Assembly (NCBI GenBank): GCA_964636125.1
Contig: CAZWPX010000011.1
Coordinates: 18,741 to 82,740 of the forward strand
Direction: 5' to 3'
Source: an uncultured Desulfobacterales bacterium
GTDB taxonomy: Bacteria > Desulfobacterota > Desulfobacteria > Desulfobacterales > CAJINA01
Length of the DNA stretch: 64,000 bases
The position numbers and the translations under genes were made by a program. Below are positions 18,051-26,734 of this stretch, in pieces (positions within the stretch are counted from its first letter, which is position 1; every line of letters starts with the position of its first letter). Under the pieces are notes generated by a model. The model did no database searches. It saw only the letters and a list, made by a program, of their open reading frames with translations, and was not told the DNA's origin.

Positions 18051-19589
18051 CTACACGTGCTGGGCTTCGGTCAGGGGATGCGCCTTGAGATATTCTATCC
18101 GGTTCAGCCCATTTACGTAGGCTTTGGCACTGGCCGTGATGATGTCCGGATCCGCCCCTTTGCCCAGGGCGATCAGACCGTTTTCCGACAGGCGCACGGT
18201 GACTTCACCCAGGGCATCGGTGCCGCCTGTCAGCGCGCTGACGGAAAACCGCAGCAGTTCCGAATTCGTCCCCGTCAGCTTGGCGATGGTGTTGAAGACC
18301 GCATCGATGGGTCCGTTGCCATAGCCGGCCCCTTTGACGCTGCGGCCGTGGATGTCCAGTTTCACACTGGCCATGGGCAGCACGGTTGTGCCGGCACTGA
18401 CATGCAGGTACGCCAGGTCGAAAATTTCCGAGGTACGCAACAGCCCTTCGGTGACAATAGCTTCCAGGTCTTCGTCAACGATTTGCTTTTTCTTGTCGGC
18501 CAGATCCTTGAAATTCCTAAATACAATTTTCAGCTCATCGTCACTGAGATCGTAACCCATCTCCTTGAGGTGGGAGCGCAGGGCGTGACGGCCGGAATGC
18601 TTGCCCAGTACCAGTTTATTGGTGTTGAGCCCCACGGTTTCCGGTTTCATGATCTCGTAGGTCATCGGGTTTTTCAGCACGCCGTCCTGGTGGATACCGG
18701 CTTCGTGGGCAAAGGCGTTGGCGCCCACAATGGCTTTGTTGGGCTGCACGATAATGCCGGTGATCATGGACACCAACCGGCTTGACGGGTGAATCTGCTC
18801 GGTATTGATATTGGTGTCCACGGGCAGGAAATTAGGCCGGGTGTGCAATGACATGACCACTTCTTCCAGGGAGGTATTACCGGCCCTTTCGCCGATCCCG
18901 TTTATGGTGACTTCCGCCTGGCGGGCTCCGGCTTTGATTGCGGCCAGGGTGTTGGCGGTGGCCAGTCCCAGGTCATTGTGACAGTGCACACTCAGGACAG
19001 CCTTGTCAATGTTCGGGGTGTTTTCAATGACGTAGCGGACCAGGTGGCCAAACTCTTCGGGTATGGCATATCCAACGGTATCCGGCAGGTTGACGGTGGT
19101 GGCGCCTGCATCGATAGCAGCCTCAAATACCTGGCAGAGAAAATCGGGGTCACTGCGGGAACCGTCTTCGGCTGAAAACTCAATACTGTCGGTCAAGGAT
19201 TTGGCATACTCAACCGCGGACCGGGTCGCGGCAACCACTTCTTCCCGCGACATGTCCAACTTGTATTTCATATGGATGTCCGAAGTGGCGATAAAGGTAT
19301 GAATCCTGGGTTTAACTGCATGCTGAACAGCACCCCAGGCTTTATCGATATCTGCCTTGGACGCCCGGCAAAGTCCGGCCACTTCAAGCTTTTTCATCCT
19401 TTTGGCGATCTGCGAAACCGATTCAAAATCGCCTTCGGAGGCGGCCGGGAAACCGGCTTCAAGAACATCTACCCCCAGTTTTTCCAGCTGAATGGCCAGG
19501 CGCAGTTTTTCGGCGGCATTCATGCTGGCGCCCGGTGATTGCTCGCCGTCTCTAAGGGTGGTATCAAAAATTATAACTTTATCATTCAT
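18051..19589 (-). CDS. leuA: 2-isopropylmalate synthase
   Basis: The sequence contains IFDTTLRDGEQSPG, HCHNDLGLATANTLAA, TINGIGERAGN and a C-terminal LeuA regulatory domain. Confidence 0.9.
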   Translation of the reverse strand: MNDKVIIFDTTLRDGEQSPGASMNAAEKLRLAIQLEKLGVDVLEAGFPAASEGDFESVSQIAKRMKKLEVAGLCRASKADIDKAWGAVQHAVKPRIHTFIATSDIHMKYKLDMSREEVVAATRSAVEYAKSLTDSIEFSAEDGSRSDPDFLCQVFEAAIDAGATTVNLPDTVGYAIPEEFGHLVRYVIENTPNIDKAVLSVHCHNDLGLATANTLAAIKAGARQAEVTINGIGERAGNTSLEEVVMSLHTRPNFLPVDTNINTEQIHPSSRLVSMITGIIVQPNKAIVGANAFAHEAGIHQDGVLKNPMTYEIMKPETVGLNTNKLVLGKHSGRHALRSHLKEMGYDLSDDELKIVFRNFKDLADKKKQIVDEDLEAIVTEGLLRTSEIFDLAYLHVSAGTTVLPMASVKLDIHGRSVKGAGYGNGPIDAVFNTIAKLTGTNSELLRFSVSALTGGTDALGEVTVRLSENGLIALGKGADPDIITASAKAYVNGLNRIEYLKAHPLTEAQHV

Positions 19590-19749
19590 GGGTGTGGTTC
19601 TCCTTTTCGAGGTCGTAATTGCTATCTCAAAAGCAATGGTTTACGTTGACAAGGTTACGGCCGTGCCCGAAATAAGCATGGGCCGCAGGTCTGGAACGGA
19701 GTCCAGGGAACCTGCGGCACGGTGACCTCTCTTTGTACACTTCATCTAT

Positions 19750-21348
19750 CTAATCCTGTTTGGAAAGTTTGTATTGAAAACTATCGGCCAGCGCCATCCA
19801 GCTGGCTTCCATAATATCTTCGGAAACACCGATGGTGCTCCAGACATCGTTCTGGTCGCGGGATTCGATAAGTACCCGTACCCGGGCTGCCGTTCCCGCC
19901 CGCCCGTCAATGACCCGCACCTTGAAATCCACCAGGCGCATGGCATCCAGGTGGGGATAGAATTTATCCAGAGCCTTGCGCAGGGCGTTATCGAGCGCAC
20001 TCACCGGGCCGCTGCCCTCGGCCGCGGTAATTTCATCCTGACCTTCCACGGCGATCTTGATTGTCGCGTGGGCACTACAGGGTTTGTCCTTGTCCTTTTC
20101 AATGGTGATGCGAAAGGATTCCAGGTCGAACAGGGATTTGAACTGGTTGGTGAATTTTTCGACCAGGATCTTGAAAGAACCATCCGCGACATCAAACTCA
20201 TATCCCTGCTGCTCCAGATCCTTAATCTCGGAGACAATTTTTTTGCTGTCAAATCCATTGCCACCCAGGTCAATCCCAAGTTCACGGGCTTTGTATTCGA
20301 TGTTGCTTTTACCGGAGAGGTCCGACACCAGCACCCGCCGGCGGTTGCCAATCCGCTCCGGGTTCATGTGCTCGTAGCCGCGCGGATCTTTCATGACGGC
20401 GCTGACATGGATACCGCCCTTGTGCGCAAAAGCGCTTTCACCCACAAAAGGCCGGGAGTTTACCGGGATCATGTTGGCCGTTTCACTGACAAAGCGGGAC
20501 AGCTTCTTCATGCCGGCCAGGTTTTCCGGCGTCATGCAGGGCCGGTCCATTTTCAGGCACAGGACCGGAATAATCGAGGTCAGGTCCGCGTTTCCGCAGC
20601 GCTCGCCATAGCCATTTATGGTGCCCTGCACCATGGTGGCTCCGGCGTGCACCGCTGAAATCGAATTGGCCACCGCCACTCCGCAATCATTGTGGCAGTG
20701 GATGCCAAGTTTGCAGGGCAGTTTTTCCGGATTGGTGCCTGTTTTTTCAGCGAGTGCTATTTTCACTTCGTCTACAATTTCTGCGACCCGGAAGGGGAGT
20801 GTCCCTCCATTGGTATCGCACAAGACCAGGGTCCCGGCACCGGCTTCAAAGGCCGCACAGAGTGTTTCCAGCGCGTACTGCGGATTGTCGGCATACCCAT
20901 CAAAAAAGTGTTCGGCATCATAGATGATTTCGCGACTGTTTTTATGGAGGAAAGCCACCGAGTCACGGATCATATCCAGATTTTCCGCGAGGGTAATACC
21001 CATAATACCGCTGACATGCAGGTCCCAGGTTTTGCCGAAGATGGCCACGGCCGGGGTCTGACTTTCTAAGAGCGCCTGGAGGTTGCCGTCTTCTTCCGGC
21101 GTTTTCCCGGGTCGCCGGGTGGCCCCGAAAGCGGTCAGCGTGGCATTTTTGAAGCTTGCCCGCTGGGCAAGCTTGAAAAAGGCCATATCACGGGGATTGG
21201 ACCCCGGCCACCCGCCTTCAATATAGTGAAACCCAATGTCGTCAAGCTTCAGAGCGATTTCCAGTTTTTCATCGGCGGAAAAGTTGATATTTTCGCCCTG
21301 TGTACCGTCTCTTAAAGTCGTGTCGTACAATAGTATGGGTGAATGCAT
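19750..21348 (-). CDS. cimA: Citramalate synthase (LeuA-family type 2)
   Basis: The sequence contains LYDTTLRDGTQGENINFS, IEGGWPGSNPRD, HCHNDCGVAVANS and TINGYGERCGNA. I use the start at 21348 (GGAGA Shine-Dalgarno sequence) rather than 21360. Confidence 0.8.
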   Translation of the reverse strand: MHSPILLYDTTLRDGTQGENINFSADEKLEIALKLDDIGFHYIEGGWPGSNPRDMAFFKLAQRASFKNATLTAFGATRRPGKTPEEDGNLQALLESQTPAVAIFGKTWDLHVSGIMGITLAENLDMIRDSVAFLHKNSREIIYDAEHFFDGYADNPQYALETLCAAFEAGAGTLVLCDTNGGTLPFRVAEIVDEVKIALAEKTGTNPEKLPCKLGIHCHNDCGVAVANSISAVHAGATMVQGTINGYGERCGNADLTSIIPVLCLKMDRPCMTPENLAGMKKLSRFVSETANMIPVNSRPFVGESAFAHKGGIHVSAVMKDPRGYEHMNPERIGNRRRVLVSDLSGKSNIEYKARELGIDLGGNGFDSKKIVSEIKDLEQQGYEFDVADGSFKILVEKFTNQFKSLFDLESFRITIEKDKDKPCSAHATIKIAVEGQDEITAAEGSGPVSALDNALRKALDKFYPHLDAMRLVDFKVRVIDGRAGTAARVRVLIESRDQNDVWSTIGVSEDIMEASWMALADSFQYKLSKQD

Positions 21349-21424
21349 GCAAATCTCCATTTGGCCCGGGCGGCCGCGGACATCCAGCGGTCATCCGCGG
21401 CATATCGGGTTTACTGCAGGGTGA

Positions 21425-22477
21425 TTACCGCTGGCGGTTTTCAGGTCGTAGCGCTCTGACCGCCGCACCGGTTTGCCACATCTCGGTATTCTTGATTTCA
21501 TCCAGCTCAGCTTCCAACTTTTCACGGTAGTCGGGGGCACTGTTGACATCCAGTACGCGGCGGGTTTCTTCCCCGGTTTTAACGCTTGCATACAGGTCGT
21601 CAAATACCGGCTTGACCGCGTCCCTGAATTTCGGGGCCCAGTCCAGCGCGCCCCTCTGGGCGGTCGTACTGCAGTTTCCGAACATCCAGTCCATGCCATT
21701 TTCAGCCACCAGGCGAATCAGGCTCTGGGTGAGTTCCTCCACGGTTTCATTGAACGATTCACTGGGGCTGTGGCCATGCTTTCTGAGCAGTTTGTACTGG
21801 GCTTCCATGACACCCGCCAGGCATCCCATGAGCACACCGCGTTCTCCGGTGAGGTCACTGTAGACTTCATTTTCAAAGGTGGTGTGAAACAGGTATCCCG
21901 AGCCGATGGCGATCCCCAGGGCGATGGTTCTCTCCTTGGCCCGGCCGGTGAAATCCTGGTGGATGGCAAAGCTTGAGTTGATCCCGCTGCCATCCAGAAA
22001 GTTGTTGCGTACGCTGCGGCCGGACCCCTTGGGGGCCACCAGGATGACATCCACGTTTTCCGGCGGGATGATCTGGGTCTGCTCCCGGTAGACCACGGAA
22101 AACCCGTGGGAAAAATAGAGCGCATCCCCCTCGTTGAGTCTGGCTTTGACCAGGGGCCAGGTGGCCGTCTGGCCCGCGTCGGACAGCAGGTTTTGAATGA
22201 CTGTTGCCTTTTCAGTGGCTTCTTCCAGGGAGAACAGGGCCTGGCCGGGCACAAAACCGTCTTCAACGGCTTTGTTCCAGGATGCGGTTCCCTCTCTTTG
22301 CCCCACGATAACGTTAAATCCGTTATCTTTCATGTTCAGGGCCTGTCCAGGTCCCTGGACGCCATATCCGAGAACGGCGATAACCTCATCCTTGAGAATT
22401 TCCCGCGCCTTTTCCAGGGAGAATTCATCAGAAGTGATGACTTCTTCGCTCGTTCCACCAAAATCAATCTGTGCCAT
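21425..22477 (-). CDS. ilvC: Ketol-acid reductoisomerase
   Basis: The sequence contains VLGYGVQGPGQALNMKDNG, SHGF and the LSDAGQ region. I use MAQIDFGG at 22477 (GGAGG Shine-Dalgarno sequence). The 39-aa extension in the ORF track overlaps ilvN. Confidence 0.9.
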   Translation of the reverse strand: MAQIDFGGTSEEVITSDEFSLEKAREILKDEVIAVLGYGVQGPGQALNMKDNGFNVIVGQREGTASWNKAVEDGFVPGQALFSLEEATEKATVIQNLLSDAGQTATWPLVKARLNEGDALYFSHGFSVVYREQTQIIPPENVDVILVAPKGSGRSVRNNFLDGSGINSSFAIHQDFTGRAKERTIALGIAIGSGYLFHTTFENEVYSDLTGERGVLMGCLAGVMEAQYKLLRKHGHSPSESFNETVEELTQSLIRLVAENGMDWMFGNCSTTAQRGALDWAPKFRDAVKPVFDDLYASVKTGEETRRVLDVNSAPDYREKLEAELDEIKNTEMWQTGAAVRALRPENRQR

Positions 22478-22580
22478 TTTTCCTCCAATCTTCCATTTCT
22501 GGGTACTTAAAGTCATTAAATCTGCAAAATGCAAAATATCGTTTGACGCATGGTCACCGGTCGCCGACCGCGCCTGTTGT

Positions 22581-23090
22581 TCAGGCGGGTTCACGCAGCA
22601 GTGCGATGGTGCCGGTCCGGGCGATTTTTTTGATCCCGATGGGCTTTAACAGGTTCAAAATTGCCTGAATCTTGCCCGGGTCGCCGGTTACTTCTATGGT
22701 ATAGTGTCCCAAACCGGCATCAACCACCTTGCCCCTGAAAATCTCCACGATACGAAGGATTTCGGCACGATGTGAATCGTGGGCCTTGACACAAATCAGG
22801 GCCATCTCACGGTGCACCGCCTGGGGACCGGACAGGTCACGGACCTTGATGATATTGATCAACTTGTTGAGCTGTTTTTCGATCTGTTCCACAATGCGGC
22901 CATCGGCTTTTGTCACGATGGTAACCCGGGAAACTTCCGGGTCCATGGTTTCCGCCACGCAGAGGCTGTCGATATTGAAACCCCGGCCGCTGAAGAGCCC
23001 TACAATTCTTGAAAGAACCCCGGGCTCGTTGTCCACCAGCATGGTGAAGATGTGCTTTTCTGCTATGTTTACTTCTGCCTGTTTGTCCAT
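22581..23090 (-). CDS. ilvN: Acetolactate synthase small (regulatory) subunit
   Basis: The ACT-domain sequence HIFTMLVDNEPGVLSRIVGLFSGRGFNIDSL is present. Confidence 0.9.
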   Translation of the reverse strand: MDKQAEVNIAEKHIFTMLVDNEPGVLSRIVGLFSGRGFNIDSLCVAETMDPEVSRVTIVTKADGRIVEQIEKQLNKLINIIKVRDLSGPQAVHREMALICVKAHDSHRAEILRIVEIFRGKVVDAGLGHYTIEVTGDPGKIQAILNLLKPIGIKKIARTGTIALLREPA

Positions 23091-23105
23091 GGGTAGCTAT
23101 CCTGT

Positions 23106-24797
23106 TTATACTAAAAGCATGTCGGTGATACTTGCACCGGCCGGGACCATGGGATACACACACTCCTCGCGGTCCACCACAAAATCCATGATAACGGTTT
23201 TATCTGAAAATAGGCCTTCGCGTAAAACCGTTTCCACCTCTGCAGGTTTGGTGGCCCGCAGGCCCACGGCGCCAAATGCTTCGGCCAGTTTTGCAAAATC
23301 GGGGGCGTGCTGCATGTCTGTGAAGGCATACCGGCATTCGTAAAACAACTCCTGCCACTGGCGCACCATGCCCAGGTAACGGTTGTTGAGAATAATGACC
23401 TTCACCGGCAGCCCATATTGCACGGCTGTGGCCATCTCCTGGATATTCATCTGGATGCTGCCGTCACCGGCCACATCTACAACAAGCTTGTCAGGGCACG
23501 CGGCCTGGGCTCCGATGGCGGCGGGCAGTCCGAATCCCATGCATCCGAGTCCGCCGGAGGTAATAAAATGGCCCGGTTGGTCAAAGTGATAAAACTGGGC
23601 GGCCCACATTTGGTTCTGCCCGACTTCGGTGGTTACAATCGCTTTGCCTTCGGTTAGCTCATAAAGCTTTTCAACAACGTATTGGGGTTTGATGACTTCT
23701 TTCTGGTCATAGGCCAGGGGATTGGTATCCCGCCAGTCGGCTATTTGTGCCAGCCAGTCGGTACGACTGGTTTCAAGGTGGGCGATGTATTCCGGATCAA
23801 ACATTTCATTGAGGATGCCCAGGGCAATCTTGCAATCGCCGACCACCGGAATACTGACCGAGACATTTTTACGAATGGAAGTCGGGTCGATATCAATGTG
23901 GACGATCTTGGCATTGGATGCGAAGGTTTTTATTTTCCCGGTTACCCGGTCATCGAAACGGACCCCGATGGCGATGAGCAGGTCGCATTCACCTATGGAC
24001 ATATTGGCCCGATAGGTGCCGTGCATGCCGATCATGCCCAACCAGAGGGGATCCGTACCGGGAAAGGCTCCCAGGCCCATCAAGGAGCCGGTTACCGGGA
24101 TCCGGGTCTTACGGGCAAACTCGGTGAGTTCCTCCGTACCCTTAGAGAGCACAACGCCGCCGCCCGCGAAGATGACCGGTTTTTGAGCCGTTTTAATTAG
24201 CTCGATTACTTTTTTAAGCTGGTTTTTATTGGGCTTGTAGCTGGGATTGTAAGATTTGATACGGATGCTTGCGGGCTCGGTATACTCAATTTGGGTGGCC
24301 CCGATATCCTTGGGGATATCCACCAGAACAGGGCCGGGTCGACCTGATTTTGCGATGAAAAACGCCTCGCGTAAGGTTTTGGCCAACTGCCGCGGGTCCT
24401 TTACCAGGTAGTTGTGCTTCGTACAGGGCCGGGTAATGCCCACAATGTCAACTTCCTGGAACGCGTCATTTCCGATGAGGTGCGTGGGAACTTGCCCGGT
24501 AATGACGACTACGGGTATGGAGTCCATGTAAGCGGAGGCCAGCCCGGTGACGGTGTTGGTGGCCCCGGGACCGGATGTGACCAGGCAGACACCGACCCCG
24601 CCTGTGGCCCGGGAATATCCGTCGGCGGCATGCACCGCACCCTGCTCATGGCGGACCAGGATATGCCTGATATCGGTTTTGACGATTTCGTCGTAAATGT
24701 CAATGACCGCGCCGCCGGGGAATCCGAATATGGTGTCCACACCTTCCTCTTTCAGAACTTTCATCAATACCTGAGCGCCAGTGAGTTCCATTTGCAT
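23106..24797 (-). CDS. ilvB: Acetolactate synthase large (catalytic) subunit
   Basis: TPP-enzyme motifs are FGFPGGAVIDIYD, GPGATN and GLGCMGFGLPAAIGA...GDGSIQMN. Confidence 0.95.
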   Translation of the reverse strand: MQMELTGAQVLMKVLKEEGVDTIFGFPGGAVIDIYDEIVKTDIRHILVRHEQGAVHAADGYSRATGGVGVCLVTSGPGATNTVTGLASAYMDSIPVVVITGQVPTHLIGNDAFQEVDIVGITRPCTKHNYLVKDPRQLAKTLREAFFIAKSGRPGPVLVDIPKDIGATQIEYTEPASIRIKSYNPSYKPNKNQLKKVIELIKTAQKPVIFAGGGVVLSKGTEELTEFARKTRIPVTGSLMGLGAFPGTDPLWLGMIGMHGTYRANMSIGECDLLIAIGVRFDDRVTGKIKTFASNAKIVHIDIDPTSIRKNVSVSIPVVGDCKIALGILNEMFDPEYIAHLETSRTDWLAQIADWRDTNPLAYDQKEVIKPQYVVEKLYELTEGKAIVTTEVGQNQMWAAQFYHFDQPGHFITSGGLGCMGFGLPAAIGAQAACPDKLVVDVAGDGSIQMNIQEMATAVQYGLPVKVIILNNRYLGMVRQWQELFYECRYAFTDMQHAPDFAKLAEAFGAVGLRATKPAEVETVLREGLFSDKTVIMDFVVDREECVYPMVPAGASITDMLLV

Positions 24798-24815
24798 GTC
24801 CTTTGTGCTTTAAGA

Positions 24816-26486
24816 TTATTGAACAATTGCGCCCTGGCTGGCCGAAGAAACACCCCGGGCATAGCGGGCCATGTAACCTTGTTTGATTTTTTGATCAGGC
24901 TGCTGCCAGGCGGATTCCCTGGTTTTCAAAACCTGTGGTTCCACAACCAGAGATATGCGCTTAGAAGGGATATCGATTTCAATCAGGTCACCTTCGGCGA
25001 CCAGCGCGATGGGCCCGCCCTGCATCGCTTCCGGTGAAACATGACCGATGGCGGCACCCCGGGTCCCGCCTGAAAAGCGGCCGTCGGTAATCAGGGCCAC
25101 GTCGGCATCCAGTCCCATACCGGCAATGGCAGCGGTCGGGGTCAGCATTTCGCGCATGCCCGGTCCACCCATGGGGCCTTCATAGCGAATGACCACCACA
25201 TCGCCTTTATTGATTTCACTGGCCATGATAGCCCGGGAAGCAGATTCCTCATCTTCAAACACCCGGGCCGGGCCTTTGTGGTGCATCATTTCAGCGCGCA
25301 CCGCCGACTGTTTGACCACGCACCCTTCGGGGGCAAGGTTGCCGAACAGGACGGCCAGGCCGCCCATGGCATGGTAAGCCGCGTCCACCGGCCGGATGAC
25401 ATCGGCATCCCGCACGCCGGCCGCAGCAAGATTTGCAGTCACGGTTGCGCCTGTAACAGTCAGGCAGTCACCGTCTATCCGGCCGGATGCCGCCAGGGTG
25501 TGCATGACCCCCCCGATCCCGCCGGCCCGGTTGAGGTCCTGAATGTGGTGACTGCCGCCCGGACTCATGGAACAGAGATGGGGCGTTTTTTCACTGACCC
25601 GGTTAATCATTTCGAGGTCAAACGGGACACCGGCTTCAGCGGCAAGGGCGGTAAGGTGCAGGACGGTATTAGTGGAGCAGCCCAGAGCCATATCCACGGT
25701 AAGGGCATTTTCAAATGCCTGCGGAGTCAGGATCTTGGCGGGTGTCAGGTTATTTTCAAGCAGGGCCATGATCTGCATGCCGGTCCGCTTGGCCAGGCGT
25801 GTGCGCGCCGCCATTACAGCGGGTATGGTGCCGTTGCCCGGCAGGGCCAGGCCGATGGCCTCGGTGAGGCAATTCATAGAGTTGGCTGTAAACATGCCGG
25901 CACAGGAACCGCATGTGGGGCAAGCAGCGTCTTCGATTTCATCCAGTTCAGCCGCTGTCATGGATCCAGATCGTACAGCGCCCACGGCTTCGAAAACGGT
26001 GATCAGGTCAATCCGGTTGCCCGGGGGCTTACGCGGGTGGTCCCCGGCCAGCATGGGGCCGCCGCTGATGACAATAGCCGGAATATCCAACCGGGCAGCC
26101 GCCATGAGCATCCCTGGAACAATTTTATCACAATTGGGCACCAGTACCAGGGCATCAAAAGCATGGGCGGTGGCAACGACCTCGATACTGTCGGCAATTA
26201 GTTCCCGGCTGCCCAGGGAGTATTTCATCCCCTGGTGGTTCATGGCAATGCCGTCACACACACCTATGGTGCCGAATTCAACCGGCATGCCGCCGGCCAT
26301 GCTGATGCCTGTCTTAACGGCTGCAACGATGGTGTCCAGCTGAATGTGGCCGGGAATGATGCTGTTGGCCGAGTTGGCAATCCCGACCAGGGGCCTTTTG
26401 ATCTCTTCGTTGGTATAACCCATGGCCTTGAAGAGTGCCCGGTGCGGGGCCCGCTCAATCCCTGATTTGACATGATCACTTTTCAT
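24816..26486 (-). CDS. ilvD: Dihydroxy-acid dehydratase
   Basis: The sequence contains [44 protein letters not shown] and [12 protein letters not shown] use MKSDHVK at 26486. The 24-aa extension in the ORF track runs through the terminator hairpin. Confidence 0.95.
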
Positions 26487-26511: not shown

Positions 26512-26555
26512 AAAAAAAAATCCGTTATCGGCCTGAGGGCTGATAACGGATTTTT
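26512..26555 (-). terminator. Intrinsic terminator (attenuator) between the leader ORF and ilvD
   Basis: The minus-strand RNA is AAAAA-UCCGUUAUCaGCC-CUCA-GGCcGAUAACGGA-UUUUUUUUU. This gives a 9 + 3 bp stem with one mismatch, followed by a 9-U tail. It ends 25 nt before the ilvD ATG. Confidence 0.8.
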
Positions 26556-26576
26556 CATATAAGCTGGATTATGAAA

Positions 26577-26675
26577 TTAGGCCATTATGTACCCCCGCTC
26601 CTCGTTGCGGATAATAATATCCACGACGAGGACGATAATTAGACCGAGGCTGTTAATAATGGATAGATTTTTCAT
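26577..26675 (-). CDS. BCAA-rich leader peptide (32 aa): MKNLSIINSLGLIIVLVVDIIIRNEERGYIMA
   Basis: Manual translation shows 15 of 32 residues are Ile (8), Leu (4) or Val (3). In the run LIIVLVVDIII, 10 of 11 residues are BCAA. It was too short for the ORF track. There is no strong Shine-Dalgarno sequence. Confidence 0.65.
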   Translation of the reverse strand: MKNLSIINSLGLIIVLVVDIIIRNEERGYIMA

Positions 26676-26705
26676 AATTTATTTTTGTCTGTCACTAATC
26701 TCGGG

Positions 26706-26734
26706 AAAATAACACTAAGGTCAGGGCGTGTCAA
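26706..26734 (-). promoter_or_regulatory. Sigma70-type promoter candidate for the ilv leader/operon
   Basis: The minus strand reads TTGACA, a 17-nt spacer, then TGtTATTTT (a perfect -35 and an extended -10). It lies 9 nt after the topA stop and about 30 nt before the leader ATG. Confidence 0.55.

Follow-up and report, generated by a model that had tools for sequence, protein, structure and literature searches.

The 256 nt between the topA stop codon (26743) and the ilvD ATG (26486), on the minus strand of a 64,000-nt stretch of contig CAZWPX010000011.1 from an uncultured Desulfobacterales bacterium (this whole stretch is called the window below), form a leader region that we read as a ribosome-mediated, or leader-peptide, transcription attenuator sensing Ile, Leu, and Val together. 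We put the probability of this reading at roughly 85%. The region contains a promoter-like site, a 32-codon open reading frame (ORF) rich in the three branched-chain amino acids (BCAAs), a hairpin within this ORF, and an intrinsic terminator with a tail of nine U residues (U9), all of which had been picked out, and correctly placed, in an initial annotation of the sequence. The attenuator had been proposed there as well, and it is now supported by the conservation of the ORF, by an antiterminator that competes with the terminator, by the placement of the leader stop codon, by a terminator that ilvD transcription has to cross, and by the linkage of the whole element to ilvD.

The leader open reading frame and its relatives

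Relatives of IlvD were taken from species-representative genomes (64-73% identity; Desulfobacteraceae, Desulfosarcina, and Desulfobacterales metagenome-assembled genomes), a metagenome scan added IlvD-bearing contigs at 72-87% identity, and the 450 nt upstream of ilvD were scanned in 160 loci. In 11 of these loci (L001 to L005, L009, L012, L081 to L083, and L089), across which IlvD identity spans 64-87%, an ATG-initiated ORF of 26-33 codons rich in Ile, Leu, and Val is followed by CCGTTATC...ATAACGG and a T tract. A BCAA-rich mini-ORF upstream of related ilvD genes, for which the initial annotation had suggested looking, is thus present in 11 loci. The terminator motif occurs once in every leader-bearing locus (11/11), in none of the 149 other loci, and once in the 64-kb window. 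The octamer CCGTTATC is also found upstream of ilvD in L086 (-181) and L087 (-223), there without the ATAACGG arm or an Ile/Leu/Val-rich leader, and these two occurrences are probably due to chance. The window leader and its 11 Desulfobacterales-type relatives were combined into an alignment of 12 leaders (A1), to which the column and pairing statistics below refer.

The window leader encodes the peptide MKNLSIINSLGLIIVLVVDIIIRNEERGYIMA, with its ATG at 26675 and a TAA stop codon at 26579..26577. Ile, Leu, and Val account for 15 of its 32 residues (8 Ile, 4 Leu, and 3 Val), an enrichment over the 23.6% seen in 16 window genes (binomial P 0.002), and for 45-59% of the residues in every one of the 12 leaders. 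A run of such codons equivalent to window codons 12-22 was found in all 11 relatives. Within the alignment, T occupies codon position 2 in 62% of cells, compared with 6% at position 1, and the invariant Ts within the leader ORF all fall at codon position 2. This pattern, together with the amino acid content, points to selection favoring Ile/Leu/Val (NUN) codons, with the frame held constant. The leader uses the Leu codons CUA and CUC twice each and lacks CUG, which makes up 58% of Leu codons in the 16 window genes, where CUA makes up 2%. This use of rare Leu codons recalls the E. coli leu leader and could alternatively be caused by constraints on RNA structure. The 32-aa window peptide and the 33-aa peptide of L003 are present in a public protein collection as unnamed predicted proteins in singleton clusters; gene callers at times annotate such leaders as hypothetical proteins.

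The promoter-like site ahead of the ORF consists of a -35 element TTGACA (26734..26729), a 17-nt spacer ending in TGT, and a -10 element TATTTT (26711..26706). It scores 10/12 plus the TG, the best of 14 sigma-70-like sites in a 12-kb scan. Ten orthologous leaders carry the site at the same spacing, with TTGAC invariant, TGnTA nearly so, and an A-rich tract upstream. Transcription would accordingly start near 26699, about 24 nt ahead of the leader ORF.

Alternative pairings, stop-codon placement, and proposed mechanism

The 201-nt leader folds at -66.2 kcal/mol, with z = -6.3 against dinucleotide shuffles. At its 3' end, separated from the leader ORF by a 33-nt spacer, the terminator hairpin AAAAAUCCGUUAUCAGCC-CUCA-GGCCGAUAACGGAUUUUU spans 26555..26516 and is followed by the U9 tract to 26512; its energy is -20.9 kcal/mol, 91% of cells are paired over the 12 sequences, and RNAalifold recovers it too. 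The initial annotation had called for mutually exclusive terminator and antiterminator structures and had found no convincing antiterminator by eye. The pairing that had been missed is formed by Region 2 (GGGGGUACAUAAUGG), in the last codons of the ORF, with Region 3 (CCGUUAUCAGCCCUC), the 5' arm of the terminator. This antiterminator helix comprises 13 pairs (7 bp, a 2-nt mismatch, and 6 bp) and has an energy of -16.4 kcal/mol, compared with the -20.9 of the terminator; 89% of its cells are paired across the 12 sequences. Over these sequences the antiterminator ranges from -12 to -23.5 kcal/mol and the terminator from -16 to -25 kcal/mol, and in 6 of the 12 the antiterminator is more stable than the terminator.

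Region 2 and Region 4, the partner of Region 3 in the terminator, are near-copies that each complement Region 3 (in L003, GGGG-C-GAUAAUGG and GG-C-GAUAACGG). The structure of the terminated state is 83% paired, a value equaled by 0 of 500 shuffles, and slid registers reach 29-55%. Most of the terminator/antiterminator stem is invariant and hence uninformative on pairing either way. Where it varies, Region 3 column 145 (G, C, or A) covaries with Region 2 column 93 (U/C, G, U) and also with Region 4 column 159 (C/U, G, U). This three-way covariation is what two alternative pairings of the same strand predict.

A further hairpin lies within the ORF, with 7+7 bp, a UUAU loop, and an energy of -20.7 kcal/mol. 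It is paired in 81% of cells in the 12 sequences, four of its pairs show compensatory changes, and RNAalifold predicts it independently, together with the terminator. The initial annotation had centered ribosome-induced remodeling of the leader on a hairpin over codons 16-26. That hairpin is present and conserved; it is not itself the switch, which is formed by the competition of Region 2 with the terminator arm for Region 3. The central hairpin probably stabilizes a closed, untranslated leader or acts as a pause hairpin for RNA polymerase. A 9-bp helix at the start codon (~26681..26673 with ~26574..26566) was considered as an additional element and rejected as chance: it is paired in 49.5% of cells, a level also attained by 88 of 500 shuffles.

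The placement of the leader stop codon adds further evidence. The window TAA begins 2 nt past Region 2, and in 12/12 sequences the stop falls within Region 2 or no more than 3 nt beyond it, with three different reading frames in use. Codon by codon, G(N)GAUAAUGG appears as GCG AUA AUG GNC UAA in L003, L004, L083, and the window; as GGU UGA in L089, L082, and L005, or GGC UGA in L001; and as CGA UAA in L002 and L081. In L012 and L009, the stop codon also falls inside their own version of the motif. Because the motif is read in three frames, it is conserved as RNA and not as peptide. With the stop in or near Region 2 in every sequence, a terminating ribosome would occlude the antiterminator strand.

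The effect of ribosome position was simulated on transcripts that end immediately ahead of Region 4 and in which the 30 nt under the ribosome were masked. With the A site at or before about codon 24, Region 3 of the window transcript is paired upstream with P = 0.87, and the corresponding values lie between 0.6 and 1.0 in 11 of the 12 sequences. The exception is L012, which shows little upstream pairing of Region 3 at most ribosome positions. When the A site is at codons 12-22, the masked nucleotides end before Region 2; at codons 26-33, upstream pairing of Region 3 drops to 0.1-0.5. In L004, L005, and L002, the full-length equilibrium fold likewise changes from the antiterminator, with the ribosome in the Ile/Leu/Val run, to the terminator, with the ribosome at the end of the ORF.

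These features suggest the following mechanism. Transcription would begin about 24 nt before the 32-codon leader ORF, which would be translated. With ample charged Ile, Leu, and Val tRNAs, the ribosome would reach the stop codon and cover Region 2 (the last five sense codons), leaving Region 3 to pair with Region 4; the terminator would form, and polymerase would stop at the U9 tract (26512). If any one of the three amino acids were scarce, the ribosome would stall in the run LIIVLVVDIII (codons 12-22), with its footprint ending before Region 2. The stalled ribosome would melt the central hairpin and Region 1 and leave Region 2 exposed, so that Region 2 could pair with Region 3 as soon as the latter is made. 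No terminator would then form, and transcription would read through into ilvD-ilvBNC and probably cimA and leuA. Of all this, the ORF, the alternative pairings with their conservation and covariation, and the placement of the stop codon are seen in the sequences, while the transcription start, leader translation, ribosome stalling, the order of folding, and a response to BCAA supply are inferred.

Several results weigh against this mechanism. The leader ATG of the window lacks a Shine-Dalgarno sequence, as the initial annotation had rightly remarked, and so do those of all 11 relatives; judged from the sequence, initiation would have to rely on a short A/U-rich 5' end, and this is the main weakness of the proposal. 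The leader ATG that lacks a Shine-Dalgarno sequence is itself invariant in 12/12 sequences, with A/U-rich sequence upstream. In the full-length equilibrium fold of the window, moreover, the terminator prevails wherever the ribosome is placed, so the switch there must be kinetic; we consider the truncated-transcript calculation more informative than this fold. The weakest part of the model is Region 1. Region 2 pairs with upstream leader codons in 12/12 minimum-free-energy folds, in the window with Region 1. The partner codons vary among the sequences, however, and codon-shuffled leaders pair nearly as well (P 0.007-0.63). That the 1:2 pairing does not rise above shuffled controls for most sequences follows from the intrinsic complementarity of the Ile codons AUUAUC to GAUAAU. 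Region 1 is therefore diffuse, with only Ile/Leu/Val codons as a class complementing Region 2, and the 1:2 pairing is regarded as plausible. Given this result, the behavior of the untranslated leader RNA is uncertain.

Competing explanations and the surrounding locus

The hairpin and its U9 tract could instead be a constitutive terminator of topA, with the ORF arising by chance in AT-rich intergenic DNA and ilvD depending on leaky read-through or on a promoter that escaped notice. In keeping with this, topA ends 8 nt before the -35 box, the hairpin is the sole terminator after topA, and it is symmetric (A5 ... U9), like general bidirectional terminators. Yet only the window, L083, and L005 have topA upstream. 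In other loci, this leader and its terminator adjoin a divergent short-chain dehydrogenase gene (L002 and L081), a divergent metallophosphoesterase gene (L082), a divergent AlgH-like gene (L003 and L004), and thiC (L001). Since the same element precedes ilvD whatever the upstream gene, the terminator belongs to the ilvD leader and not to its neighbor. ORF length, frame, and Ile/Leu/Val content are conserved in 12/12 sequences, and the U tract ends only 25 nt ahead of the ilvD ATG; this leaves no room for another promoter, so that every ilvD transcript passes the terminator. We regard a plain topA terminator as extremely unlikely. As part of the attenuator, the hairpin probably serves topA as a terminator too in L083, L005, and the window. 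Any topA read-through would run into the ilvD leader.

It is also very unlikely that the ORF encodes a functional small hydrophobic protein, such as a membrane peptide or type I toxin-like peptide, whose expression the RNA structure serves. The peptide is conserved, its core of about 18 hydrophobic residues does resemble a transmembrane segment, and public collections list it as an unnamed protein; the leader peptides also give faint, non-significant matches to small membrane-protein models. Against this, three frames are used across the conserved 3' part of the ORF (G(N)GAUAAUGG), with the stop codon often inside it, which speaks for conservation as RNA and not as peptide. Ile, Leu, and Val make up nearly all of the residues in place of a general hydrophobic mix, and the ORF always accompanies ilvD, oriented the same way and with a terminator/antiterminator pair. 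The element is moreover unique in the window and, unlike toxin loci, which tend to be so, is neither mobile nor multicopy. A switch set by a trans-acting factor (an RNA-binding protein, uncharged tRNA, or a small molecule) recognizing the invariant CCGUUAUC/GAUAACGG element would account for a terminator stem that is invariant down to 64% IlvD identity, which is unusual for a plain hairpin, and for the lack of a Shine-Dalgarno sequence before the leader. Stem invariance is explained, however, by the need of Region 3 to pair with both Regions 2 and 4 and by the additional coding function of Regions 1 and 2. The distance between the two arms of the stem also differs by several nucleotides among the sequences, as expected for a hairpin rather than for a protein-binding site of fixed dimensions. 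Neither the window nor its relatives gave a match to any Rfam family, T-boxes and riboswitches included, and a trans-acting factor would leave the ORF signature and the stop-codon placement unexplained. We accordingly give this explanation a very low probability.

There is a small chance that the attenuator has an additional role, in which the leader peptide (~30 residues) or the ~185-nt terminated RNA acts in trans, or the stem CCGUUAUC/GAUAACGG binds a second regulator. Trans action has been reported for peTrpL and rnTrpL of Sinorhizobium (PMC7298713, PMC6614838). If true, such trans action might, for example, link BCAA status to membrane or other targets.

The features of the leader and the downstream genes are listed in Table 1.

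Table 1. Coordinates of leader elements and downstream genes in the window
Feature	Coordinates	Strand	Basis
Promoter-like site	26706..26734	-	Sequence scan and conservation
Leader ORF, 32 codons plus TAA	26577..26675	-	Sequence and comparison
Region 1 (CCAUUAU ... GCCUCGGU), codons 5-11	26643..26662	-	Minimum-free-energy fold
Regulatory codon run, codons 12-22 (L I I V L V V D I I I)	26610..26642	-	Sequence
Central hairpin in ORF, codons 15-26	26599..26632	-	Fold, covariation, RNAalifold
Region 2 (GGGGGUACAUAAUGG), codons 27-31, antiterminator 5' strand	26582..26596	-	Fold and alignment
Region 3 (CCGUUAUCAGCCCUC), common to antiterminator and terminator	26535..26549	-	Fold and alignment
Intrinsic terminator: A5 tract, stem CCGUUAUC(A)GCC / GGC(C)GAUAACGG, U9	26512..26555	-	
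Downstream genes, as a block	18051..26486	-	NCBIfam
ilvD	26486..24816	-	
ilvB	24797..23106	-	
ilvN	23090..22581	-	
ilvC	to 21425	-	
cimA (citramalate synthase)	21360..19750	-	
leuA	19589..18051	-	

All six downstream genes, and topA, dprA, and secF upstream, were assigned by NCBIfam models above their curated cut-offs; by these assignments, the operon products cover Ile, Leu, and Val synthesis. The ilvD start at 26486 is preceded by the Shine-Dalgarno sequence AAGGA(G), and the resulting 556-aa product aligns with its relatives from residue 1. This exact protein is present in the public protein collection and the product of the extended 580-aa ORF is not, bearing out the suspicion in the initial annotation that the N-terminal extension is spurious.

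The six-gene operon proposed in that annotation is plausible and partly supported. The order ilvD-ilvB-ilvN-ilvC-cimA is constant in the leader-bearing loci wherever the available sequence is long enough, whereas a 160-nt gap (19590..19749, minus strand) separates cimA from leuA. This gap contains a 9+5-bp hairpin (CCGCAGGU...ACCUGCGG). A second leader before leuA was considered and rejected: the gap has neither a U-tailed hairpin nor an amino-acid-rich ORF, and its fold has z = -1.8. An internal promoter or a site of processing may lie within it, which makes strict co-regulation of leuA with ilvD uncertain; cimA and leuA are probably co-transcribed with ilvD-ilvBNC. Elsewhere in the window, an ORF of more than 2,100 codons occupies 57586..64000 on the plus strand and continues past the window end.

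Comparison with known systems

Judged by its sequence, the element appears to belong to no described family, while its class of mechanism is well known. At gathering score, Rfam gave no matches in the 64-kb window or in 15 related loci, and a search of the 500-nt region at E <= 10 returned only chance-level matches (E >= 0.8); T-boxes, riboswitches, and known leader families were rejected on these scans. The NCBIfam leader-peptide models match neither the window peptide nor those of five relatives. The Pfam model IlvGEDA_leader (PF08046) does not match the window peptide and matches one relative only, at E = 0.25 and 11.4 bits (cut-off 25). We found no ilv leader described for Desulfobacterales in the literature that was searched; an earlier prediction within surveys of delta-proteobacterial attenuators is possible. 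To our knowledge, almost no cis-regulatory RNAs have been described for Desulfobacterales-type bacteria. The leader therefore provides a testable regulatory model for BCAA synthesis in these bacteria, including the citramalate route to isoleucine, and the 12-member alignment could seed an Rfam-style family. The understanding of attenuation as a mechanism is left unchanged, and the use of the finding lies chiefly in annotation and in the study of BCAA regulation in Desulfobacterales.

The leader is also a further indication that unrelated lineages have repeatedly given rise to leader-peptide attenuators. Among the scanned loci, unrelated Ile/Leu/Val-rich leader ORFs with an intrinsic terminator precede ilvD in Veillonella (L064:3650-4003, L068, L139, and L145), in L078:3770-4003, and in L148. 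The Veillonella leader, MLGLVVVIISLLIIIDIIVIS..., has a strong Shine-Dalgarno sequence; the L078 leader is MISEMNFNRHIDHIILWISLIILLVDRREGAV, and the leader ORFs of both L078 and L148 end in a repeat of the 3' arm of the terminator. This distribution suggests that Ile/Leu/Val leaders before ilvD arose independently and repeatedly, and a convergent origin of leader peptides has been proposed previously (PMC2965389). A 2013 survey remarked on the absence of Ile/Val attenuators from Rfam and considered amino-acid attenuators to be essentially gammaproteobacterial (PMC3766115).

Lineage-restricted uORFs rich in Leu or in all three BCAAs, followed by a terminator before ilv genes, also characterize the Corynebacterium ilvBNC leader (the uORF/ilvB-II motif) and the leaders of Staphylococcus and Listeria, which were found by comparative genomics (PMC10272879, PMC11857589, PMC5794164, PMC5864092). 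Those leaders differ from the present one in their unrelated sequences and hairpin layouts, and they precede ilvB or ilvD in Gram-positive bacteria. In Firmicutes, T-box leaders are located at the corresponding place ahead of BCAA genes and likewise report aminoacyl-tRNA status through a terminator/antiterminator output. The sensor in the present leader would, in contrast, be a translated ORF and not a tRNA-binding RNA, and no T-box was recognized here by Rfam. T-boxes are known in Geobacter (PMC3766115).

The arrangement of regions follows the four-region model of the E. coli trp attenuator established by Yanofsky and co-workers, in which Region 2 pairs with Region 1 or 3 and Region 3 pairs with Region 4. 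As in trp, the stop codon sits where a ribosome terminating on it would block Region 2, and the terminator slightly exceeds the antiterminator in stability, hence a kinetic choice between the two. The present leader differs from trp in its Ile, Leu, and Val codons in place of Trp codons, in the extra covarying hairpin between Regions 1 and 2, and in its diffuse Region 1, with many Ile/Leu/Val codons able to pair with Region 2 in a register that varies among relatives.

By analogy, the enterobacterial ilvGMEDA leader (ilvL) appears functionally closest. E. coli IlvL has the sequence MTALLRVISLVVISVVVIIIPPCGAALGRGKA. In E. coli and Salmonella, as here, a 32-codon leader is rich in all three BCAAs, which implies a multivalent Ile/Leu/Val logic, and alternative terminator and antiterminator hairpins place the terminator just before the first biosynthetic gene. 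The two leaders share no sequence homology, occur in Desulfobacterales-type bacteria and Gammaproteobacteria, respectively, and differ in that the present one lacks a Shine-Dalgarno sequence. The genes they would control differ as well, the operon described here being ilvD-ilvBNC-cimA-leuA, with a citramalate route to Ile.

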